Of a DNA stretch of 64,000 nt, positions 3,367-59,575 are shown in pieces. A program made the translations under genes and the position numbers. Below the pieces are notes generated by a model. The model worked only from the letters and a program-made list of their open reading frames with translations, did no database searches and was not told the DNA's origin. Position 1 is the stretch's first letter. Each line of letters begins with the position of its first letter. The stretch covers positions 227,801 to 291,800 of the forward strand of contig NZ_CP159837.1 of assembly GCF_040564635.1 (NCBI RefSeq). The letters run 5' to 3'. This stretch comes from Planktothricoides raciborskii GIHE-MW2. GTDB lineage: Bacteria; Cyanobacteriota; Cyanobacteriia; Cyanobacteriales; Laspinemataceae.

Positions 3367-6300
3367 TTATAATTGGGTCTTAGAATTCGGCCAAGGAATT
3401 AAAGGATCTTGGGATAAGCGGTCAGAAACCCTTTGAGCACCGAGGGCATTTAAGTGACTGGGGTCGGAAAAATATTGATGCTCGTTCGGCCATTCTTGAC
3501 TAAAATCTCGGAAGATAAATCCATGTTGCAATGCCAGCCCTAACATATACTTTTGAAAGGCGCTTTCATGTTTCATGCGAATCGGATCTAAATAATCTTC
3601 GGTTAGGGGAGTGTTAACAAAAACCAGTGAGACTTGATGCTTGTTGAGAAAGTCAAGTAAGTTAATGGTTGCTGTAGTTTGTTGACCCGTAAGGCTAAAG
3701 GATTCATAGTCAGCGTCATAGTCCCCAGAAACGAAAGCATATTGCTCATAATAACTCTTCGGGTCGAACTGAATGCTGATGGGCAGGAAACCATTAAAGT
3801 GACTGATAGATTTACCGTCGGTAATTGTGATTGCATCTAAAGGATTTACGGTGCCGTCTGAGGCCGAGTCGCAAACCAAAGATGTGTCCCCAGTTTTATC
3901 GGTACTTTGGCAAGAAAGAGACTTGGTTGAATCAGCGGATTTCTGTCGATCGCTAATAGAATTGCGGAGACTATAGGCAAACCAATTGTGCAATTCTTGG
4001 CGTTGAGAATAGGTAGCAGAAAGCGAGCCGACTTGTTCATTAAGCCATCGGTCAAGTTGCTGGTAGGCATCAGAGAAAGAGATGCCTTTTTTGGCTCGTT
4101 CGGCGAGGGTGGAGGTTAAGGAAGCCAAAGAATTTCCTGATTTAGATTCTGGGGGCAAAATTGCCGGGGGTGAACCGAATTGTAATTCTTTGTAGCCTGC
4201 GGAGGCGGTAATCATTTGAAAAGTGCGATCGCTTCTACCACTATTAAAAGCGCGTGCCCCATCGGCCCAAATAATTAAACGAGGCAACTGTTTAGCCCCA
4301 AGGAGTTGACGCACGAGCAAATCCACTACTTGAGCCGTTGCACCATTCACCCCAAAATTAAAAATGCGGAGATTAGGATAGCGATCGCTAAGTTGACGAT
4401 GCATATGCCCTGGATCGACACCCCGTAGAGCGCGGGAACTGCCCACAATCAGCACATCGGGCACCCCATACTCAGCCACATACTGAGCATAAATCGCCAA
4501 TTGGTCGTCCAGTTGCTGACTATTAAACGAAGGATATTTAAACTTTTCCGCGAGTCGGGGGCTAAAAAATTCAGCATCTCCGGTCATAGCTTGAGTAAAA
4601 CCAGAAGCGTTAAACACTTCAGAGTTGTCCTCGGCCTTTGACCAATTCATATTGCCTAAATCGGAGTCACTGGCTCCGGTAAAATCCATCAACTCTTGAT
4701 TGTCGATTTGGGTTGAAGCGGGCAGCAGGGCTGAAGATTCAGAGACTGCAGTGGTTGCTTGCCACTGCGCTTGATTAGTTTTGAACTGCTGGATTTGTAG
4801 CAGTTCCGCCAATAACCAATCCGCTTGCAGGGTAAACAATAAACCCAAAAGTCCCCAAATCATGGTTACTTTTGCCGAAGTTAAGTTGGTAGTGGGGGAA
4901 GTGGTAATGGGAACAAAAAGCCCAGAGAGGAGTAACCCTTGCTGGAGAGGATTGGGAGATGCTTCTTTCTTTTTCCGAAGTTTGACGGTGAGTGGCTTAG
5001 TCAGACAAGATTGTAAATCGTCTGAGTTGAGATCGGGATGCATCACCAAATTGCCCGGTTGGGGCAACAAGTCGGCAGTCGTCACCAAAGATGCGGGTTC
5101 GGTAACGGTAAATTCTGGGATGGTTTCCGTGCGAGACGAGCGGGACTGAAAATCCAGGCCATAGCGCCATTGCCCCTGGGCTTTTTGAAGCTGTTTTTGT
5201 CCCGCTCGCCTGCCGTAGACGCGCACTCCCAGGGTTTGCGGCAGATTCAGAGTAGCGACAAACTTGGCAACTTTCGCTCCGATCGCTCGCGGGGGGCAGG
5301 TGGGGGCTTCCACCAGAATATGCAGCAGGTCTGCTTTTTGACGGAGGGAAACCCGTATTCCCCCGGTATTGAGTTTTTCTTCCAAATCCGGGTGGAGTAG
5401 GCGATCGATCAAAAAAGTCAGGGCGGACAAATCTCCATTCTGGGCTAACTCCATCGTCGTGGGGGCAAGATGGCTAAACCGAGAAGCGGGCAAATCGATC
5501 CAATCTACCCACAGGGGGGTAGCATCCATATCCAGGGAACTGGTAGATTTATCACCTCTGAGACCATAGATAGTGACGCCATAGATATTCTGGGGGGCAA
5601 TAGTTTCTAGGAGGGGAGCGATCGCTGCCTTAACTGCTTCCTTGTGAAAAGTCGTCGAATCCGTCCCATAAGCCGCTGAATCGATGGCAAAACCTGGGTC
5701 GCTCAAAAAGATATGTAGGGTCGATTCTTTCAGCACCCCAGAAATCTGTAAATCTTCAGCAAAACTACCCGGTAAAGCTTCCCGTAACCGTTGATGCAAC
5801 AGTTGGGTAATTGCTTCCACATCTCCCCACCTGGCCCAATCTTTGAGCATCAGTTTTGCGGGGGTCAAATCGACCCGGAGAATCCATTCCGGCTGTTTTT
5901 CTCCGCTCACCTGACCGAGAATCACCGCATCTTTAAAGCCCTGTAAATCCAATTCTCGTAAGCGGGCGCCGAGGGAAGGGGCAATAGACAAGGGTTCTGG
6001 ACTATAAGCAGACTGGCAAACCACCCAAAGACGCTTTTGGGGTTGAGAGTTGACCGCCTCCACCTTAGTATGCAGATAAACAGCCGACCAAGGATTAGGG
6101 GCAGCCGATGCAGGATTTGGCTCGGCTGCCTCTGTCCCTGCCGAGGGTGATGGGGAAGCGAGTGATGATTCCAGGGTTTGAACTTTCACAATCACCTTAA
6201 CCCCTAAACCCCAAGACTTCAGGGCGTGACTCAGGTAATCGGCGATCGCCTTGGGATTTCCTTCGCGGGCAGCGTGCCAATCCTCGGACGGAGGGGGCAA

Positions 6301-40077: not shown

Positions 40078-40322
40078 TCGGTAAGAGATTGGCTAAGATG
40101 ATGTCATTATGCCAAGGGGTTGCCCCATATCAGCAATTATGATTCACCGATGATGGGTGAAACAGAAGATCACCATGAACGACACTATCACCCCGATAAA
40201 AGTTCAAAAAAAGCTACGAAAAATCAACGGTTTTAGCCTTGTAACCGATGAGTTACAAGGCTTTTAATTTTATTAGGTGGCGGTGCAAGTGGCGGTGTAG
40301 GTGGCGGTGTAGGTGGCGGTGA

Positions 40323-40853
40323 TTATGCCCGTGCAAAATCCCCGGCCCCGGCCCCGGAATTTTCCTGAGACTTGCTATCTCGGTCAAACCAGAAATCAAA
40401 AATCTGATCCACGTCTATGCCGTCAAACTTGGGCACGGCACAATAGTGGCGGATAGCATCGGCCCCCGTTCCCACCCGGCACGCATATTTTTTCTGGTAG
40501 CCAATGAGATCCAAAATGACATTGATGCGATCGCCCGTCTTAACCGGGAGCCCCCGGCCAAATGTCTCTACAAACTCATCTGGGTTTAACCTGGCAACGG
40601 TATCGGTGAGGAACGGATCGTTATAGGCGAAATTTTCACCCGTCAAAAACCGGGATAAGCCCTTGTCAAAAAGCACCGATAAGTATGCTTGTCTGAGACT
40701 GACTGCATACTTGCTGATTTCATGGTCAAGGCACTGAGTTTTAGAGGTAAAAGTCTGGACTTGTTTAGCATCGTGAGACACGGCAAAAGCTTTACCAATG
40801 GTCAGGTAATACAGCAGTTGTAACGGTCGGAAACAACCGTGATCATCAGCCAT
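40323..40853 (-). CDS. Hypothetical protein
   Basis: The ORF is in an island-like region. I recognise no family. Confidence 0.45.
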   Translation of the reverse strand: MADDHGCFRPLQLLYYLTIGKAFAVSHDAKQVQTFTSKTQCLDHEISKYAVSLRQAYLSVLFDKGLSRFLTGENFAYNDPFLTDTVARLNPDEFVETFGRGLPVKTGDRINVILDLIGYQKKYACRVGTGADAIRHYCAVPKFDGIDVDQIFDFWFDRDSKSQENSGAGAGDFARA

Positions 40854-40888
40854 GATTAAAGCCTTAGAACAATAGCCATAAGTTCTAA

Positions 40889-41386
40889 CTAAATTCCCCG
40901 TTGTTTATACCGTTGATGCTTAGTTTTTGCCACGGCATTATTAAGGGTTTTTAATTCATCATCAGAGGGATTCTCAGTGGTATCAATCTCGCTGACTTCA
41001 GTATCATAAGCCGCATTTCTAATCTCTCTGATTTCAGTATCATGCACCTTTACAGGGTCAACATAGTGGCACCGATGACCGTCGGAAGTCAGCAACCATT
41101 CTAAATTTTCCCGGTAAGCACTTAACCCTAAATTGCTAAGGGCTACAGACTCACAGTAAGCATAAAATAACCCATTATCTAAAGCGGTAAAATCTTTGAG
41201 AAAAGATTGCATTCTCTTTTTGTTGGTTTGTAAGCAATGCTTAACCTGATCCGATGATAACGCACCACCAAATTTCATATATGTAGCGTTACCTGATTTT
41301 GGGAGCCAGATATGCCGGTCAACGGGCCAGCGATACCGTGCCACAAATTGAGCGACTGACTGAACATATTCAACGCTATAAACCAC
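40889..41386 (-). CDS. Hypothetical protein
   Basis: It lies 36 bp upstream of the previous gene on the same strand, so the two are probably co-transcribed. Confidence 0.45.
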   Translation of the reverse strand: MVYSVEYVQSVAQFVARYRWPVDRHIWLPKSGNATYMKFGGALSSDQVKHCLQTNKKRMQSFLKDFTALDNGLFYAYCESVALSNLGLSAYRENLEWLLTSDGHRCHYVDPVKVHDTEIREIRNAAYDTEVSEIDTTENPSDDELKTLNNAVAKTKHQRYKQRGI

Positions 41387-41801
41387 ATAACAACCGTGAT
41401 AAACAAGTCATTATTAATACTAAAATTTGTCTATAAAACACTGGAATAGATGACTAATGTTTATTCGCTTAACTTGCCTAGTTTAATTGATATAGAGCAA
41501 GCTTTATAATCAGGTTACTTAACTTAATTAACATTATTAAAGTCAATTAATCAAACTTAAATTTGACAATAAAGTGATAATATAGTGGCATTTTTTTTGC
41601 CATAATACAACGACTTAATCTTCTGGATACCGCAGAATAAAAATACGCAATTACCTTTTGATAAGCGAGGTTTACACTCTGCTAACAGTCTGTATGGGTT
41701 GTTTTATTGGTAAATAAAAAAATCCATAATTCAGCCTTATCAAACTTCTAATTATTTTGGATTAATTAACGCTACATCTGACTTGCCTACTTCAGCCATT
41801 T

Positions 41802-42857
41802 TTATAAAAAACTAAATGGAAAAATCAGATAAGTCAGCGTCAGCCAAATAAATTTTTGAAGCGTTTTGACTATCTTAAGCTGAGTCATAATTTCAGCCCG
41901 TTTTTTTCTAAGATACTTAGTATCAGCGTGTAATAAGTGATTTAAAACTTGTTCAGACTCATCAACAACCAAAAGACAACCGTCAAGGTAATTATCAACC
42001 GTCAGGTCAATTTTAGCTTTAGAATTAGGATGTAAAGAATCAATACACAGTCCTAAGCCAAAATATAAAGCCTCTAACCAATCTTTTTTAGAGGTCATCT
42101 CATTGAGAAATTGAATCCCGAAACGGTCACATAAGTGGGACATTAATTGCACTCTGTGTCCTAGCACAATCACTTTATGACCTGCTTTTATGGCGTCACT
42201 GACCATCTGGGAAAGTGTCCAAGTTTTACCCGTGTTTTTAGGGAATTTAATTGCTACAATTTTTGCATAAAGTTTAGGAAGTTTATCTAAATGTCTCCGA
42301 TTAAAGTCTAAGACGGGATAGCTTAAGTTTATAGACTTTCTGAACTTAGAAACTTGCAATGGTAAGGCAGAATTTAAAACCGTCTCAAGTGTTTCAATGC
42401 CATTCTGGACAAAGATATCATCAACACCTTTACCTAACTCAGGATGCCACTGAGCAATTTTAACAACTGCTTTTCTGTTAACCAGCCAAGTGATTTTATT
42501 GGCTAGTCTGGACGCGGCATTGTAAACATCTAAGGCAGTTGAGACTCTGCTATCAGCGTCAAAAGCGATCGTGATTTCGAGTTGTTGAAACCGGCTAAAG
42601 AATGATTGCAGCCACGGGTTTAAAGGTGCTTTAAATGCCGCGATACTTCTATCACTGGTATCAGAAAAGTTCCATATCCCTGGTAGCCCAATAGCAACGT
42701 AACCAGCACAAAGCAGACACGCGGTTTTCTTTGCCCCTTCAGTGATGACGACGGGCAAGTTATTGGCGATCGCCCATTCCCAAAATTGCTTACCATAACA
42801 GGTTTCATGCAAAAAAGGATGTTTGGGTTGATCAAGGTCTACTCGGTGCTCTAACAC
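41802..42857 (-). pseudogene. Truncated plasmid-type replication/primase-like protein (Toprim/DUF3854-like N-domain + P-loop NTPase)
   Basis: The N-terminal VVITEGAKKTACLLCAGYVAIGLPGIWN block is Toprim-like. Walker A (FPKNTGKTWT) and Walker B (LLVVDESE) are present. The ORF terminates about 50 aa after Walker B, in AT-rich sequence. Confidence 0.5.
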
Positions 42858-43916
42858 CGGGTTTTTTTGTCTCTAAACTTGGTGTGTGAAGTCCAGAGAC
42901 GGGATAAAATCACACCCTTTTAAATATTTATCCCTCATAGAATAGCACAAATTTCTAGTGGTAAACAGCAATCTTTAAAATCCTAGTGCTTTTATCCCTT
43001 GCATCATGGAAATAATGAGTGCAATGTGTGCTAATCGCTAGATATGGTGGCTTTGTTGTAGGTCAATAGCTAAACACGGTGTGTTTGGCAGATGTAATAT
43101 GCCACAATCGAATTTGATTGTTAAGTAAATATTAATCGCTGAAAGTTTTGTGCCACATAGTTTTTTATCACTATTGATTAATGTCAATACTTTTATCAAA
43201 AGTATTAGTAATAAAGCCACATCAAGCCACGGTATAAAAGTGCTATGCAAAGTGCTATGTAAGGAATGGCTAATTGCTGAATATTGATACAAAACTTAAA
43301 TATTTACCATAACAGATATAGAGTTTACAACCGAGTATCTGTTATCTGTGATTAACTTGCCTTTCTGTTTAGACCGTTGGCACTGGGATAACTAGCAAAG
43401 TTATTCCAGTTAACCAGTGAATCACTAACAGTTTGACTCAGCTTTTCTAGGGATTCTGTCTGGGTAGTTGACTGACTGAATTGCTGGTCTAACTGTAAGA
43501 AAACGTCAGGGATATATACTGCTTTTTCCCCTATATCGTTACTGATATTCATCAAGTCGTTAATCATGGTTTATAGGATTTTGGCTGACTCGCTTGATAG
43601 GCTTGAGTGACCGGCATTAATGTCAGATACAGCATTATCAATGTCTAGAGTTGCACTTGCCAGAATAGAGCGGGCTAAGGTCAACTTAGCTATAATCTAA
43701 ACCCATTGATTATTAGACAGTTTAATAACCTTTAAACTTGCTATGAAAATGTTTGGACTAACACAAAACTGGACTGCACTCGGTTCAAGATTCTGCACTC
43801 GGTGCGATCGCGTCGCGGGTGGGTGAACTTTTGGGAAAATGGGTGAACCCTAGTCAGATCAAGGGTGAACCTAGGTGATCGTTGGGTGACTTTTTGGGTT
43901 CACATTCACCCCTGAG

Positions 43917-44264
43917 TCACCCCTGAGTCACCCTCGGTTCACCGCGAAAGTCACCCCTAACTGAACGGAAACGGGATGACATTTCAAACATTAACTCTGC
44001 ATACTTTTGCTTGATTTGTTCCAAAAACTCAGCCACGTCAAAACGACGCTGAGAGACATAGATATAGAGTTCTTTGCCTATCCCAGCAACTACCAGAAAA
44101 CACTCTGGGTTATCCCAGATGTCCATTTGGTAACGGGGTGGGTAAACTTTCCGAAAATGAACGTAATACAAGGGAATCACAGAGTCACTCAACTCATCTA
44201 TCTTTTTGGCCGATTCTATTAATCGCCATTGCTGACCTGACTCACTGCGTAATTTAGGCAACAC
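43917..44264 (-). CDS. Hypothetical protein
   Basis: The ORF is in the island. I recognise no family. Confidence 0.3.
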   Translation of the reverse strand: MLPKLRSESGQQWRLIESAKKIDELSDSVIPLYYVHFRKVYPPRYQMDIWDNPECFLVVAGIGKELYIYVSQRRFDVAEFLEQIKQKYAELMFEMSSRFRSVRGDFRGEPRVTQG

Positions 44265-44308
44265 ACTGAGAAAATTGTCTTGACTTGTTACCTGAAAACG
44301 GTAATCAC

Positions 44309-44647
44309 TTAGGTTTTTGCTAAGTCAGGCACTAAAGAACCATAGTAATAATCTAAAACTCGGATGATTTCAGCCTTAGTCAACCGTGACCAGTCCCGCT
44401 TGACGATACCTAGTCTGGACTGGAAAAAGTTGCGAGTGACTTTGAAGGCAGTCCGACTGAGACGGGACACCTTAGCCTTTAACTGACGGATCGTGAGGGT
44501 CACATACAGTCTTTTCATACCGCGTGCCCCCCGTGGTTTTGTGCTATTCTCATAAAAGAACCCTTGTTTTAAGGTGTTTGAATAACCCGTGTCAGCGATT
44601 CTGCCAAGAACTAGCGTTGACGCGGGTTTTAACGTTTTTAGGGTCAA
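44309..44647 (-). CDS. Basic (K/R-rich) hypothetical protein, divergent from the XRE regulator
   Basis: The composition suggests a nucleic-acid-binding protein. Confidence 0.3.
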   Translation of the reverse strand: MTLKTLKPASTLVLGRIADTGYSNTLKQGFFYENSTKPRGARGMKRLYVTLTIRQLKAKVSRLSRTAFKVTRNFFQSRLGIVKRDWSRLTKAEIIRVLDYYYGSLVPDLAKT

Positions 44648-44743
44648 AACTAAAATAACCCTATTAATAGAGTAGTCGAAATGGCGACATAAGTCAATAC
44701 AAATATTAAAAAAAATCGTTAAAACTGCTACAGTGTATAGATA

Positions 44744-45007
44744 ATGAATTTAAATGCTACACTGAATATGTCAAGAACCTTGCTTAATATGCCGATGAAA
44801 TGGCGACTAGCGGTTGTCATGGCTGAAAAAGACATGGGGGTTAACGATTTGGCTGCAATAACTGGGTTGCACCGTGCTACCATCAGCAACTTAAAAAACA
44901 ACCTGCCTAGTCATATCAGAATGAAAACCTTGCAAAAAATATGTACGGCCCTCGAATGTCAACCCGGTGAGTTACTTCAGTGGACCCCAGACAATGACGC
45001 GGTATAA
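44744..45007 (+). CDS. Cro/CI (XRE)-type HTH transcriptional regulator
   Basis: The HTH is VNDLAAITGLHRATISNLKNN. The start may be an internal Met. Confidence 0.65.
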   Translation: MNLNATLNMSRTLLNMPMKWRLAVVMAEKDMGVNDLAAITGLHRATISNLKNNLPSHIRMKTLQKICTALECQPGELLQWTPDNDAV

Positions 45008-45034
45008 CCGCAACGCTCGATCGCTGACCAATTA

Positions 45035-45061
45035 CCTACCCCTAACCGGGTAGGTTTTTTG
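45035..45061 (+). terminator. Rho-independent terminator
   Basis: CCTACCC-CTAACC-GGGTAGG is followed by TTTTTT. Confidence 0.6.
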
Positions 45062-45399
45062 TTGGGAACCGAGGCCGCTGGCAGCCCGTGTAGCGGGGCC
45101 GCGTTACCTCGTGTGATGTGGGAAAAATGTCATTATGCCCATCTCTAGTGTTTTAACTAATCCTTCTGCCCATCCCTAGTGTGTTTGTAACTTTGCTGTG
45201 ACCCCGTGTGTCATGCTGGGAGCCAAAAACCTTATCTGGCAAGCATCACAAGCTTTTTAACAATATTTTCAATAAGCTTAAAACTTAGACGCTGCACTGG
45301 TTTCAAGCTTTGTATAGCCACGGGGTGATGTAAGGCTTGTCACCCCGTGTGGCGGTGGCGGTGTGACTGGTTACCGTAACCGGAATAACCCGGAATGAA

Positions 45400-45640
45400 T
45401 CCGCATAGTGCATTGATGATAAAAATTTCTCTGAACATGGCTTGACATGGCACTTAGTGGCACTAAGTGGCACTAAGTAGCCACGTTAAGCCACAAATAG
45501 CCCAAAATAGCCCTAGTCAACCCTAAAAAACGGGTTTTTTCCTCAAAATCGTGACCCAAAATAACCCAAAATAACCCAAAATGGCACTAAGTAGCCACGT
45601 CAAGTCCACTTAGTGCCATTACAACTTTTCTCACTAAAAA
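45400..45640. repeat. Iteron-like direct and inverted repeats (GGCACTAAGT x4-5, CCCAAAATAA x3)
   Basis: The repeats are seen directly; the region may be a decayed replication origin or attachment site. Confidence 0.6.
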
Positions 45641-45859
45641 ACTCTGGTATGGCCGGTCAACCTACTACCAGAGTTTTTTTGAGAGTTAAACTAAAAGCTA
45701 AAAGAAAATGAATACAATGTTTTCCGCACATACAGCATAGCACATATCTAGCCACCTAGTGCCATTACAACTCTGTAATTTTGCCCGCAAATTGCGTGTA
45801 TCTCTGGCAGGGGATTAATCCCCTGCTCAACCTCGCTAGACTTAACTCACCGCAAAAAC

Positions 45860-46084
45860 TTAATCCCCTAATTCTGGCAAGGTGATATTTTGGGCTAAAT
45901 TTTCGTAATCAAGACGGTCATCTCGGTAATGCTTGCGGATCCTTGTCGGTGATGTATCGAGTAACGCGGCGATCGCTTCTTCCGACATCCCAGACTCTAG
46001 CCAACGATTCTGGGTAGTGTGACGGGCGTGGTACGTCGGAAGATACTCGGTGACTTTTCCCATCTCTACCAGTGCCTTAACCAC
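45860..46084 (-). pseudogene. C-terminal fragment of a tyrosine recombinase/phage integrase
   Basis: TYHARHTTQNRWLESGMSEEAIAALLDTSPTRIRKHY matches the integrase box II/catalytic Tyr region. Only 74 aa remain, with no N-terminal part. Confidence 0.6.
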
Positions 46085-46172
46085 TTGAGTCAGTCGAAAC
46101 CGGATAAGTATCGATCCAGATTTCTAGGCTTAGGGGTGATTTTAGGAATCATATATTATTTATTAGGGAACA

Positions 46173-46745
46173 ATGGATCTGACTCCGATAATACCCCAAG
46201 TGGCTATGAAGGTGGCGGTAACGGGGAAACAAACAGCTTACAACCTATATATAACAAGACTTGTAAAGAACTGTTTGAAAGACACTCAAATTTCTGAGGA
46301 TAGCCAAATAGGCGATCGCAGGCGGTTGGTCTGGGAAATCGTCAATCAGCAAGCCGAAGGCGCTAACTTAGAAGGAGTCAACCTCGCAGGAGCAAATCTA
46401 AAAGGGGCTAACTTAGAAGCTGCTTATCTCAAGAATGCCACTCTGGACAATGCCAAGCTAGAAAATGCCAACCTCACTGGGGCCAACCTAATGAATGCGA
46501 ACCTTCAACGAGCCACACTCAAGCAAGCCAAGCTGATTAGCGCTACTTTAAAAGGGGCGAATTTGGCCAATGCCGACTTAGAAGCCGCAAACTTATATAT
46601 AGCAAATCTCCGAGATGCCCAGCTTCAAGGAATTAACCTCAAAGATGCCAATGTCCAAGGAGCCATATTGCCCGGTGGGGAATTAAAAGAGGCATTCGAT
46701 GAATCCGATGAATCCGATGAATCCGATGAATCCACATCTAATTGA
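46173..46745 (+). CDS. Pentapeptide-repeat protein with C-terminal (DES)n acidic tail
   Basis: A(N/D)LxG pentapeptides repeat throughout. The tail DESDESDESDES derives from a 9-nt tandem repeat. Confidence 0.7.
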   Translation: MDLTPIIPQVAMKVAVTGKQTAYNLYITRLVKNCLKDTQISEDSQIGDRRRLVWEIVNQQAEGANLEGVNLAGANLKGANLEAAYLKNATLDNAKLENANLTGANLMNANLQRATLKQAKLISATLKGANLANADLEAANLYIANLRDAQLQGINLKDANVQGAILPGGELKEAFDESDESDESDESTSN

Positions 46746-46749
46746 TTTC

Positions 46750-47050
46750 AACCAAGAAACCGGAGCATAAATCCCCCGCCTCACAAACCGGCGGGGATTA
46801 AAATCCCCGCCTCATAGCTAAAGTCCGATGAATCGGACTGAAATCAAATCAGGTAATTGTAGAGAGTCGGTTTTAACCGACTTGCGCTGTGAGACGGGGA
46901 TTTTAATCCCCGGCGGTTTTTGGGCGGATTTCAAATAGTGCAAGATTTCGGTTTTAACTGACTTGAACTATGAGACGGGGAATTGATTCCCCGACGGCTG
47001 TGGTCTATTCAGGAGAAAACCCCTGTAAGAAACCTGGTTTCTATCACCCA
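46750..47050. repeat. Nested palindromes and two about 60-bp direct repeats in a convergent intergenic region
   Basis: Overlapping alternative hairpins are CCCCCGCC..GGCGGGGATTAAAATCCCCGCC and GTCGGTTTTAACCGAC. The unit TCGGTTTTAAC[CT]GACTTG..GAGACGGGGA..TCCCCG occurs twice. Confidence 0.8.
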
Positions 47051-57325: not shown

Positions 57326-57994
57326 TTACCTGTTGGTTTCGCATCTGGTTTCGGCTAAAACTTGTCTCACCCAAGCCCGAAAAGAACGCAATAAAGTTGT
57401 TTCTCCTAAAGTTTGGCTTTGGCTGAAAAATTTCGTTAGTTCTGTCACCGATAACAGGGGAAAAGCAAGCGATCGCTCCACCATGATATATTTTCCCGCT
57501 TCTAACTGTAAGAACTTGACCACCCCGCGATCGCATCGCCAAATTTCTGGCACCCCCATTGCCGCATAAATCCCTTCTCGATCCACAGAACTACTGGAAA
57601 CATCAATTTCAATTACCAAATCCGGGGGCGGATCGGTAGTTAAATCAATCCGGGATTTTCCCTTAACCAATCGTTCATTTTGAATATAAAAACTTGAATC
57701 CGGTTCAGCCCCTTTTGCTAAATCTGGGCGCTTCAAAGTTGTCGAACCGACACTTAAAATTTCTATATTTCCTTCTTCTGCTAAAGCATCAACAAATTTT
57801 TCTAAAATTCGTTTTGGGTTTTCGTGGTCTAACAGCGGCGTCATAATTTCTAATAATTCTCGGTCATAGCATAAGCGAACAGTCCGATTATCTCCCATTT
57901 CCGCTAACAGTTGTTCATAGGTATGCCAGCTAATATGATGGAGGACAACTCTACCGATCGCAGTCGGAGTTAAAGTCGGTGCAGTTATGGTCAT
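57326..57994 (-). CDS. Uma2-family (DUF820) PD-(D/E)xK endonuclease, copy 1
   Basis: PDLVIEIDVSS and the EIW block are present, over a typical 222 aa. Confidence 0.8.
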   Translation of the reverse strand: MTITAPTLTPTAIGRVVLHHISWHTYEQLLAEMGDNRTVRLCYDRELLEIMTPLLDHENPKRILEKFVDALAEEGNIEILSVGSTTLKRPDLAKGAEPDSSFYIQNERLVKGKSRIDLTTDPPPDLVIEIDVSSSSVDREGIYAAMGVPEIWRCDRGVVKFLQLEAGKYIMVERSLAFPLLSVTELTKFFSQSQTLGETTLLRSFRAWVRQVLAETRCETNR

Positions 57995-58042
57995 AAAAAA
58001 TCTGCTTCAATTTAAATTATTTTTTTAACCAAAAGTCAGTCC

Positions 58043-58213
58043 GTAGGTTGGGTTGAGGCACGAAACCCAACGGAGGAGAGAGAATAGAGAAGAGACAATA
58101 GAGAATAGAGGTTCGTAGGAGAGGAAAAATTGAAATCTCCACTTTTCACTCTTTCATCAGCATCTATTTCCTAGGCATCTCTGTTGGGTTTTGCTTCGCT
58201 CAACCCAACCTAC
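58043..58213. repeat. MITE-like element with perfect 15-bp terminal inverted repeats (GTAGGTTGGGTTGAG / CTCAACCCAACCTAC) enclosing AGAGAATAGAG repeats
   Basis: Seen directly. The internal repeats resemble those at 21050-21110. Confidence 0.7.
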
Positions 58214-58263
58214 AAATACTATGTCATATTATGTAATATAATATATGTAATAGATATTGCCAT

Positions 58264-58932
58264 CTAATTGCTGGTTTCGCTGTTGCTTTCCGCTAAAACT
58301 TGTCTCACCCAAGCCCGAAAAGAACGCAATAAAGTTGTTTCTCCTAAAGTTTGGCTTTGGCTGAAAAATTTCGTTAGTTCTGTCACCGATAACAGGGGAA
58401 AAGCAAGCGATCGCTCCACCATGATATATTTTCCTGCTTCTAACTGTAAGAACTTGACCACCCCGCGATCGCAGCGCCAAATTTCTGGCACCCCCATTGC
58501 CGCATAAATCCCTTCTCGATCCACAGAACTACTGGAAACATAAATTTCAATTACCAAATCCGGGGGCGGATCGGTAGTTAAATCAATTCGGGATTTTCCC
58601 TTAACCAATCGTTCATTTTGAATATAAAAACTTGAATCCGGTTCAGCCCCTTTTGCTAAATCTGGGCGCTTCAAAGTTGTCGAACCCGCTCGCATTATTT
58701 CTATATTTAACTCTTCGGCTAATACCCCCACCAAAGCCGTTAAAATTTCTTTTGGGTTTTCGTGGTCTAACAGCGGCGTCATAATTTCTAGTAATCCTCG
58801 GTCATAGCATAAGCGAATCGTCCGATTATCTTCCATTTCCGCTAACAGTTGTTCATAGGTATGCCAGCTAATCTGATTGAGGACTACTCTTCCGGGTACA
58901 GTCGGGGTTAAAGTCGGCGCAGTTATGGTCAT
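58264..58932 (-). CDS. Uma2-family (DUF820) endonuclease, copy 2 (tandem paralogue)
   Basis: The 3' two-thirds are near-identical to copy 1 at the nucleotide level, and the N-terminal third has diverged. DLVIEIYVSS replaces DLVIEIDVSS. Confidence 0.8.
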   Translation of the reverse strand: MTITAPTLTPTVPGRVVLNQISWHTYEQLLAEMEDNRTIRLCYDRGLLEIMTPLLDHENPKEILTALVGVLAEELNIEIMRAGSTTLKRPDLAKGAEPDSSFYIQNERLVKGKSRIDLTTDPPPDLVIEIYVSSSSVDREGIYAAMGVPEIWRCDRGVVKFLQLEAGKYIMVERSLAFPLLSVTELTKFFSQSQTLGETTLLRSFRAWVRQVLAESNSETSN

Positions 58933-58954
58933 AAAAAATCTGCTCCAATTTAAA

Positions 58955-59575
58955 TTATTTTTTTAACCAGAAGTCAGTCACATCATAACCTAAATCAGTA
59001 ATCATCTGCCGCAGCAACGGTAAACTTAACCCAATCACGTTAGTATGACAGCCCTCAAGTTTTTCCACAAACAGTCCCCCTTGACCATCAATAGCAAAAC
59101 AACCGGCACAGTTTAGGGGTTCTCCCGTTGCCACATAAGAAACAATTTGTCGATCGCTCATGGGGGCAAAATAAACTTTGGTCACTTGGCAACGAACTAA
59201 AGTATTGCCTTTAGTTAAATCTATCAGTGCATGACCTGTGTAAAGTTCGCCCACAGAACTCCGCATTTTTTGCCAACGAGCGATCGCCACTTCGGGAGTT
59301 TCTGGTTTCCCATGAATTTCCCCATCTAATACCAACACTGAATCACATCCTAATACTAACATCGGGGAATGGTTCGGATCGTGCGGGGTAAATTCTTGGG
59401 CGACCACTTCTGCCTTACAGCGGGCTAAAGTCTCAACTAATTCACTGGGTTCATCAATCTGAACTTGTGACTCATCAAAATTACTCCGACAAACAATTGG
59501 TTCAAATCCCGCTTGTTTTAATAACATTAAGCGAGCGGGAGAAGTTGAAGCTAAAATCAACGCTGGATTCTTCAT
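58955..59575 (-). CDS. maf: Maf-like nucleoside triphosphate pyrophosphatase
   Basis: The N-terminal [14 protein letters not shown] motif is present, over 206 aa. Confidence 0.85.

Follow-up and report, generated by a model that had tools for sequence, protein, structure and literature searches.

Probable remains of a small CyRepA1-type plasmid with its own tyrosine integrase beside murF in Planktothricoides raciborskii GIHE-MW2

Genes and features between murF and the pentapeptide-repeat gene

We examined a stretch of 64,000 nucleotides (nt) from Planktothricoides raciborskii GIHE-MW2 (contig NZ_CP159837.1, positions 227,801 to 291,800), referred to here as the window, and within it the island flanked by murF (38695-40077, - strand) and a pentapeptide-repeat gene (46173-46745, + strand). 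An earlier note, made from the sequence alone, had suspected a decayed integrative element at this place. The sequence features that it listed are all present at or near the positions it gave, and a decayed integrative element, which is also our core reading, is strongly supported. The 6,100 bp at 40187-46286, which adjoin murF, very probably derive from a small CyRepA1-type plasmid (~8.7 kb), now a fossil, which encoded a tyrosine integrase of its own.

Between the two flanking genes lie minus-strand open reading frames (ORFs) of 176, 165 and 351 amino acids (aa), several small minus-strand ORFs, a plus-strand ORF of 87 aa and a minus-strand ORF of 74 aa. Pfam recognised DUF3854 in the 351-aa ORF, HTH_26 in the 87-aa ORF and Pentapeptide in the flanking gene, and gave no family match for the remaining candidate genes between murF and the pentapeptide gene. 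A tRNA scan of the window found no tRNA gene, so the insertion target was not a tRNA gene. The Rfam scan of 39500-47000 returned no RNA family, and the sole result from PADLOC was a weak 'control protein' match for the XRE regulator. The earlier note had also proposed to compare base composition and to search plasmids and phages by BLASTN. Guanine-plus-cytosine (GC) content proved only slightly low in the island (41.3%, against 44.1% in the rest of the window). The blastn search with the whole segment found no match among PLSDB plasmids or among INPHARED phages (50,697 phage records); the element is too diverged in DNA from sequenced replicons for a match of this kind.

The features are listed below in window coordinates. 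L027 and L047 are circular metagenomic contigs and L021 is a related genome; all three are described in the next section, and att denotes attachment sites.

40175-40267, +: hybrid 30-codon ORF, made of a chromosomal ATG and the 3' part of a plasmid small ORF spanning attP
40176-40186, +: left junction core (attL), TGAACGACACT, where L027/L047 homology stops and the murF-upstream DNA of L021 starts
40235-40262: conserved terminator-like hairpin between rep and attP, 11-bp stem
40274-40321, +: four tandem 12-nt repeats, (TAGGTGGCGGTG)x4, directly after the rep stop codon (Tandem Repeats Finder score 82); candidate integrase arm-type sites
40323-42912, -: CyRepA1-family rep pseudogene, ancestrally ~1,100 aa, with ORFs 40323-40853, 40889-41386 and 41802-42857 and a 17-codon 5' remnant at 42856-42906
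41400-41870, -: AT-enriched stretch of rep (C-terminal half of the helicase) where decay is strongest; at least 12 in-frame stops, 52% aa identity to the full-length relative P0001
43247-43345, -: remnant of the plasmid 58-aa gene with 2 stops (tblastn with L027 682-858)
43352-43720, -: pseudogene of the plasmid 121-aa gene, with start loss (M1>L) and 2 in-frame stops, 83% identical to the L027 protein
43815-43960: second iteron-like cluster, four direct GGGTGA(A/C) and then four inverted copies (GTTCACCC)
43917-44264, -: intact 115-aa gene, matching the C-terminal half of the 202-aa L047 protein with 76% identity
44309-44518, -: intact 69-aa basic gene, first of the rep operon, extendable to 44647 from a TTG start; isoelectric point 10.9 (~11)
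44744-45007, +: intact XRE/HTH_26 regulator (XRE87), 76.5 bits, divergent from the rep operon; terminator-like hairpin at 45034-45055
45348-45363, +: internal GTGGCGGTGGCGGTG motif, aligning to L027 7111-7130 in the interior of the circular plasmid
45437-45772: iteron-like region, with TGGCACTAAG three times at 10-bp spacing, more direct and inverted copies, CCCAAAATA repeats and a hairpin at 45630-45685
45860-46160, -: tyrosine integrase pseudogene, its C-terminal 74 codons (45860-46084) joined to its first ~25 codons (46085-46160)
46173-46745, +: pentapeptide-repeat gene (Pfam Pentapeptide, 125 bits), first ~36 codons plasmid-derived
46211-46220, +: one copy of GGTGGCGGTA, on the side of the core towards int, with equivalents at L027 4869 and L047 3211
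46276-46286, +: right junction core (attR), TGAAAGACACT; plasmid homology stops at 46272-46286

The three largest ORFs, which would pass for separate hypothetical genes, are pieces of one rep pseudogene. The 351-aa ORF (41802-42857, -) matches PF12965 DUF3854 (Toprim-like) over residues 25-155 with 112.3 bits, against a cut-off of 23, and has a Walker A motif (PKNTGKT) at residue 206 and a Walker B motif (LLVVDESE) at residue 295. Its stop codon follows 49 aa after Walker B, in agreement with the earlier description of a Toprim/P-loop ORF cut about 50 aa past that motif. The replication protein is not simply truncated as had been supposed, however, in that its remaining parts can be followed downstream in different frames: the 'unassignable genes' at 40323-40853 and 40889-41386 and the AT-rich 'intergenic' DNA at 41400-41800 all belong to the same rep gene. 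In a tblastn search of PLSDB, the 351-aa ORF corresponded to the N-terminal third of CyRepA1-family Rep proteins on 214 plasmids (34-39% identity), all of them cyanobacterial in the genera listed. With a concatenated query the 165-aa ORF matched a more C-terminal part of CyRepA1 proteins, and a full-length CyRepA1 from Allocoleopsis aligned weakly to the 176-aa ORF too.

The closest full-length relatives in a large protein collection (P0001-P0005) are 977-1,103 aa long and 64-76% identical. Where these references would lead one to look for a single continuous ORF of ~950-1,100 aa, the window has three ORFs in three frames. Residues 3-19, 190-515, 516-667, 672-835 and 837-1023 of P0001 were placed colinearly on the window by tblastn, in three different frames. 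Codons 3-19 are kept at 42906-42856 and are followed by a deletion of ~170 codons (L027 1451-1983). Codons 190-515 are intact (the 351-aa ORF) and end in a frameshift near 41868; codons 516-667 are the stop-dense stretch at 41400-41870; codons 672-835 are again intact (the 165-aa ORF), with a second frameshift at 40898; and codons 837-1023 are intact in the 176-aa ORF. A further ~70 codons (L027 4441-4652) were deleted directly before the native C-terminal ...GDFARA stop. In total, rep has suffered two deletions, at least two frameshifts and 12 or more stop codons. As a consequence of these breaks, its ORFs match the NCBIfam CyRepA1 model (NF042913, helicase region, cut-off 200 bits) separately, with 101.1 bits (positions 2-119) and 45.4 bits (279-446); the intact rep of L027 passes with 322.7 bits.

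The stop-dense stretch has a composition of its own. GC content is 24-32% over 41408-41707, against ~41-44% in three relatives, and 28% over 41708-41856, against ~34-36%. GC>AT changes affected 33% of the conserved GC sites in 41400-41870 and 8.5% of those in the flanks, with equal AT>GC rates, and the bias is strand-specific (16 G>T and 12 G>A changes on the coding strand). A selection test on the intact-looking rep pieces, using the codon positions of lineage-specific changes, found the decayed segment to be the fastest-evolving in the functional relative L028 too.

The integrase gene is also broken. The 74-aa ORF (45860-46084, -), taken in the earlier note for the C-terminal remnant of a tyrosine integrase, is indeed such a remnant, sharing 89% identity with the last 75 aa of an L027 protein of 427 aa. 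An internal deletion of 989 bp (L027 5007-5995) has its junction at window 46084, such that 45437-46084 aligns to L027 6650-5996 and 46084-46272 to L027 5006-4815; the 5' remnant is frameshifted besides. The 427-aa ORF of L027 (4937-6220) matches the phrog_1 integrase over residues 8-408 (E 6.5e-26). It has no close relative on 72,556 sequenced plasmids, its single match there being an annotated tyrosine recombinase on an Allocoleopsis plasmid (28% identity, E 2e-12). Direct reading of the sequences finds ...LPTYHARHT... and ...IRKHYRD... in the 74-aa ORF, L027 and L047; candidates for the catalytic Arg and Tyr are present by eye, and the first His position (HxxR) appears to be Tyr. The 74-aa ORF by itself had no family match, and the integrase found no match among PDB sequences and no relative in IMG/VR. 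All mobility genes of the island are thus broken, the XRE gene and the 69-aa/115-aa gene pair being the only genes still intact. The island is now inert as a mobile element, and it is unable to excise because int lost its 989 internal bp.

Relatives, junctions and the insertion site

Relatives were retrieved as contigs encoding close Rep relatives. L027 (8,756 bp) has a 29-bp terminal overlap, and L047 (8,506 bp), whose contig ends cut through rep, agrees with it in gene order. In both, rep is followed by 12-nt tandem repeats, a hairpin, a small reverse ORF, the 427-aa ORF, the iteron-like region, XRE (reverse), a 190-200-aa gene, a 121-aa gene and a 58-aa gene, which lead back to rep. The island at 40187-46286 is colinear, in circular permutation, with these ~8.5-8.7-kb circles. 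In blastn and tblastx comparisons the entire island followed L027 with one break point, and window 40165 to 46304 matched the L027 circle opened at ~4808-4815. Retrieval of these contigs was decisive for reading the island as a linearised plasmid.

Other relatives were found integrated in chromosomes. L028 (Planktothricoides sp. SR001) lies in a WD40-repeat gene and is opened at the same plasmid position as the window copy, L048 lies beside FRP/OCP genes, L049 and L050 lie beside tRNA-Thr(CGT) and L051 beside tRNA-Gly(CCC). The junction always falls 100-160 bp after rep, and this recurrent position argues for site-specific, integrase-mediated insertion. Given that the relatives are integrated at other loci, a dual plasmid/chromosome lifestyle is recurrent in the group, and such a group of plasmids living free or integrated is apparently undescribed. 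L051 (3-2267) is a second independent fossil, in which rep is already split into pieces of 195 and 537 aa; decay after integration is therefore recurrent as well.

The ends of the insert are marked by an 11-bp direct repeat, TGAA(C/A)GACACT, at 40176-40186 and 46276-46286, exactly 6,100 bp apart. At the left end, homology to L027/L047 stops at ...TAGTGTC/GTTCATGG... and gives way to conserved murF-upstream DNA of L021; the sequence left of 40176 is the conserved murF upstream region of both L021 and L030. At the right end, homology starts at ...AGTGTCTTTCA/AACAGTT... (plasmid orientation). Aligning the junctions gives the common core AGTrTCnTTCA in plasmid orientation. The boundaries proposed earlier lie elsewhere. 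The GGTGGCGGTG/AAGGCTT sequences near the left end belong to the 12-nt array directly after the rep stop codon, inside the circles L027 and L047, and the motif at 45330-45362, offered as the right end, is ~920 bp inside the element. The GGTGGCGGTG repeats are in fact internal to the plasmid, with copies at 40274-40321, 45348-45363 and 46211.

A small plasmid ORF that runs across attP was split by the insertion. Its 3' half now stands behind a chromosomal ATG in the hybrid ORF, where MNDTITPIKVQKKLRKINGFSLVTDELQGF aligns with the C-terminal half of a 58-aa ORF of L027 (4711-4887, -). Its 5' half supplies the first ~36 codons of the pentapeptide gene: window 46141-46304 matches L027 4946-4783, and MKVAVTGKQTAYN resembles MAVKVAVLGRQTAYN of the L027 small ORF. 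The insertion replaced the first codons of the pentapeptide gene, whose annotation is to be corrected to one with a chimeric 5' end, and the gene presumably gained the promoter of the small ORF. If the flanks are joined, they would read ATG AAC GAC ACT CAA ATT TCT GAG..., an in-frame pentapeptide gene (MNDTQISEDSQ...) divergent from murF. On this deduction attB would have been CACCATGAACGACACTCAAATTTCTGAGGA and the uninterrupted target ATGAACGACACTCAAATTTCTGAGG, with an ancestral sequence that probably ran ATGAACGACACT-CAAATT...; the reconstituted attP junction is predicted as CTTGTAAAGAACTGTTTGAAAGACACTATCACCCCGATAAAAG. As a separate observation on this gene, its 3' end (46697-46733) is a perfect 9-nt repeat, CGATGAATC, in 4.1 copies, which encodes DESDESDES. 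The pentapeptide protein of the L039 strain has 196 and not 190 aa, a difference that points to a variable number of repeats.

In its mechanism, the insertion corresponds to classic integrative plasmids and islands. In the proposed course of events, attP would have lain ~100 bp downstream of rep, within the small ORF and ~130 bp upstream of int. Int would have catalysed its recombination with a short matching core, TGAAnGACACT, at the extreme 5' end of the pentapeptide-repeat gene divergent from murF. This would have opened the plasmid circle into a linear form and duplicated the core, leaving one copy at each end. Decay has since removed 989 bp inside int and the first ~170 and last ~70 codons of rep, brought frameshifts and a stop-dense stretch into rep, and inactivated two small genes. 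The XRE gene and the 69-aa/115-aa pair have stayed open, and three repeat families, candidate protein-binding sites, have likewise persisted.

The island was found in all same-species contigs that reach far enough (L001, L037-L042), and the integrase deletion is identical in each contig reaching it. Exact-protein look-ups likewise placed the insert in all informative contigs, and the element is fixed in the species, judged by every contig that reaches the island. The source organism turns up often in metagenomes, with its CaCA protein indexed in 63 blocks of the collection. L021 and L030, the nearest other genomes (MurF 88-90% identical), lack the island; they are 94% identical to each other and share with the window only murF and a CHAT gene. 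The segment is therefore not part of a conserved, syntenic chromosome region, the finding by which the earlier note would have given up its mobile-element reading. When the reconstructed pentapeptide protein was used as a query, the matches were generic pentapeptide proteins only (at most 55% identity), with no orthologue among them. The murF upstream region (window 40100-40190; L021 9800-10010; L030 8700-8990) is itself a rearrangement hot spot, with differing DNA starting within a few bases of the same divergent ATG in the window, L021 and L030.

Repeats, regulator and small genes

All relatives have three to five tandem ~12-nt repeats after the rep stop codon and, beyond them, a hairpin, the latter present with compensatory changes in L027, L028, L047, L048, L049 and L051. 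The repeat sequence is CCGCCACCTA in the window, L027, L028 and L047, and elsewhere CCCGATCTACAT (L048), CACTACGACTTG (L049) or GTTGCCACCT.. (L051). L047 and L048 have Reps that are 84% identical and different repeats; L027 and L047 have Reps that are ~65% identical, integrases that are 82% identical and the same repeats. Because the repeats follow integrase and not Rep identity, and because an extra same-strand copy lies on the int side of the core in L027, L047 and the window, we favour putative integrase arm-type sites over Rep iterons as the function of this array.

The iteron-like repeats noted earlier near 45400-45640 are real, non-random and a conserved part of the ancestral element. 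With up to one mismatch, GGCACTAAGT has 10 matches in the window against 2.5 expected, a count that none of 100 shuffles reached; seven of the ten fall within 45449-45763, in both orientations, and ACCCAAAATA occurs 2.9 times at 45554-45582. The region at 45437-45772 combines clustered direct repeats, helical (~10-11 bp) spacing and conservation among related replicons, as iterons do. It is kept in the four elements with a common int/XRE backbone (window, L027, L028 and L047) and is absent from L029, L048, L049 and L051. The plasmid L029, whose Rep is 72% identical to the window rep fragments, has no TAGTGCCA copies. The repeats thus co-occur with the int/XRE backbone and do not travel with Rep. 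The second cluster, at 43815-43960, was not on the earlier list; it lies upstream of the rep operon and is kept with variable copy number in L027, L028 and L047. In pSYSA, the only CyRepA1 plasmid studied experimentally, the origin region is the small-gene region directly upstream of rep (PMC9978351). With the pSYSA origin region upstream of rep, either cluster could be the origin of replication, and both are candidates.

The XRE gene is divergent from the rep operon also in L027, L028, L047, L055 and L056, and this conserved position suggests control of the rep operon and not a phage switch. Of the earlier proposal that it forms a lysogeny switch with the basic gene (44309-44647, -), the divergent arrangement held up and is conserved; the switch itself did not, as the facing gene has no helix-turn-helix (HTH) and phage genes are absent. 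The 69-aa protein that faces XRE has no family match either. Its homologues are 69-70 aa long or are fused with the 115-aa part as proteins of 165-202 aa. In the window the 69-aa ORF is followed by the 115-aa ORF after 45 nt, and the two are fused as one protein of 190-202 aa in L027, L047 and P0234. That the split might be a frameshift pseudogene was considered and rejected, the same split with the same 45-nt spacer being found in the unrelated L053 and L054; the split accordingly counts as natural variation, and the two ORFs seem intact. The 115-aa family is tiny, with 5 clusters among 1.84 billion representatives. An AlphaFold model of the fused homologue P0234 (predicted local distance difference test score 80) gave no Foldseek match to the PDB at E<0.01, with TM-scores of at most 0.3. 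No similarity was found between the small upstream proteins and Ssr7036 of pSYSA. Further along the operon, the ORF at 43352-43567 (71 aa) is the residual tail of the 121-aa gene.

The 69-aa/115-aa cassette (window 43928-44519; L053 1112-1703; L054 230-810) is 86-87% identical in nucleotide sequence among these elements, and L053 and L054 carry a different, 871-aa DUF3854-D5_N-DUF5906 primase-helicase. Sample ERZ4201039 yielded both L054 and the contig L045, whose identity to the window is 100%, so that a relative of the element is present together with the source organism.

Competing explanations, known systems and strain variation

Several observations weigh against a plasmid inserted by its own integrase as the source of the island. 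The core pattern TGAAMGACACT, whose only 2 matches on either strand of the 64-kb window are the junctions (0.01 expected), is short and was defined after the junctions had been seen; the statistic is supportive and not independent. Identity of the insert to L027 and L047 is just ~80%, so the crossover point can be placed only to within a few bases. The L027 integrase scores 22.7 bits with Pfam Phage_integrase, below the gathering cut-off of 27.1. No empty site was recovered in murF-anchored scans of GTDB genomes and JGI metagenomes; the comparison that the earlier note had proposed for this purpose met related genomes rearranged at the site. L021 and L030 are in fact rearranged exactly at the insertion spot and have no pentapeptide gene beside murF, so the reconstructed attB is only a deduction. 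With no empty site in these scans, the insertion must be older than the strains sampled, and the junction analysis is the sole source of the target reconstruction. Finally, the L027 and L047 circles may have been excised as replicative intermediates from an element that is mainly chromosomal, instead of being stably maintained plasmids.

A mainly chromosomal integrative element of this kind, replicating briefly after excision like tycheposons or phage-inducible islands and leaving the circles as excision products, seems to us rather unlikely. It would fit the recovery of five of the seven close relatives in integrated form, two of them adjoining tRNA genes, the classic target of such islands, as well as the low read coverage of L027 (2.95x, from the contig name) and the isolation of the integrase, which found one match at 28% identity and no close relative among the 72,556 sequenced plasmids. 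On the other hand, CyRepA1 is the experimentally shown plasmid replication protein of pSYSA (PMC9978351, PMC10079941), its homologues occur on 214 PLSDB plasmids, and the circles are without cargo, packaging or phage-interference genes; the insertion mechanism and the dead remnant would moreover be the same as for a plasmid. We give considerably less credit to entry of the plasmid without its integrase, through homologous or illegitimate recombination at a chance microhomology. The common core is just 11 bp with one mismatch, and the murF upstream region is a rearrangement hot spot in relatives, which would suit such an event, but the independent insertion of L028 in Planktothricoides breaks the plasmid at the same point, by int and with repeats on both sides, and more distant relatives sit at tRNA 3' ends ~140-160 bp after rep, a placement characteristic of tyrosine integrases. 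A degraded prophage or phage satellite, with XRE and its neighbour as a CI/Cro-type lysogeny switch, is very improbable. XRE87 does match the phage repressor families phrog_3 and phrog_8, and an integrase is present, but neither the island nor its complete circular relatives have capsid, terminase, tail or lysis genes, the segment has no DNA match in 50,697 phage records, and the integrase has no relative in IMG/VR. In place of two divergent HTH regulators, XRE faces a gene that lacks an HTH and heads the rep operon. That the segment is ancestral, non-mobile chromosomal DNA can practically be set aside: its presence in every same-species contig reaching it would agree with such an origin, but circular molecules of 8.5-8.7 kb are colinear with it, the nearest other genomes lack it, direct repeats bound it and its mobility genes are all broken. 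A plasmid inserted by its own integrase accordingly remains our preferred reading.

Integrative plasmids of actinomycetes and archaea (pSAM2/SLP1-type; Sulfolobus pSSVi/pXZ1-type) are small replicons with a Rep and a tyrosine integrase, which exist both as circles and integrated, with attP beside int. The element resembles them in its Rep and tyrosine integrase, and in the tRNA targets of some members of the group (L049-L051). It differs in that its Rep family is unrelated, in that no transfer genes were recognised in it, and in that the window copy and its close relatives target protein-coding genes (the 5' end of the pentapeptide gene; WD40) and not tRNA genes. The only cyanobacterial parallel that we found is the tycheposon family of Prochlorococcus, which has a lineage-specific recombinase, tRNA targets and cargo (bioRxiv 10.1101/2020.12.28.424599). 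Tycheposons are likewise cyanobacterial integrative elements, in which a tyrosine recombinase occupies one end and a small primase/helicase module serves replication, and decayed copies accumulate at their sites (bioRxiv 10.1101/2020.12.28.424599). Unlike them, the element has no cargo, takes its replication protein from a plasmid Rep family and, in the window, has a target other than a tRNA gene.

The CyRepA1 plasmids (pSYSA Slr7037 of Synechocystis 6803; pAQ1 SYNPCC7002_B0001) share the same Rep build, an N-terminal DUF3854/Toprim-like part with a P-loop helicase (PMC10079941). Small genes upstream of rep are a further likeness to pSYSA with its ssr7036-slr7037 (PMC9978351); the upstream small proteins of the element are unrelated to Ssr7036. 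The Rep of the element has 34-39% aa identity to the Reps of sequenced plasmids, and the element differs from CyRepA1 plasmids in having a tyrosine integrase and attP and in being found integrated, the window copy being a pseudogene. Autonomous replication by CyRepA1 is reported as shown experimentally only for Slr7037 of pSYSA (PMC9978351). A limited text search for integration terms in a few CyRepA1/pSYSA papers found no description of an integrating CyRepA1 plasmid.

Integrated plasmid remnants are ordinary in genomes, and this insert is one more remnant of a dead mobile element. It is of value for what it points to: its relatives define a compact module of rep, int and attP, ~8.7 kb in size and native to Oscillatoriales-type cyanobacteria, for which there are few genetic tools. 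CyRepA1 replicons are already under development as vectors (PMC9978351, PMC10079941). A matching integrase/att pair with a short core could yield a tool for site-specific integration, and the system could serve to ask how cyanobacterial plasmids and chromosomes exchange DNA.

The same-species strains differ within the island. Comparison of window 44480-45852 with L037-L040 and L001 gave flanks that are 99.7-99.9% identical, the integrase deletion junction included; left of 45852, identity falls to ~91% or the alignment is lost. These strains have another XRE allele and other iteron copy numbers, and their contigs end within the island. L001 additionally has an unalignable block at 42947-43249 and a block of 94% identity at 43249-43844, and it has lost 146 bp between the direct repeats at 45606 and 45752. 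This mosaicism suggests recombination with circulating related plasmids after integration, or else assembly chimeras.

As a tentative possibility, doubtful when taken as a whole, the fossil may mark an undescribed dual-lifestyle lineage of replicons in filamentous cyanobacteria. These would be minimal CyRepA1 plasmids that move between free circle and chromosome by means of a divergent tyrosine integrase, with the element-specific 12-nt tandem repeats after rep as arm-type sites. The host would keep the XRE gene and the 69-aa/115-aa module to repress or exclude incoming relatives, and the dead copy would act as a landing pad for recombination, which would explain the mosaicism of alleles among strains.

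Outside the island, three tandem paralogous genes of 222, 222 and 206 aa lie at window 57326-59575. Pfam recognised Uma2 in the L037 orthologue of one of these paralogues, and 58269-58979 is ~93% identical to the neighbouring copy.

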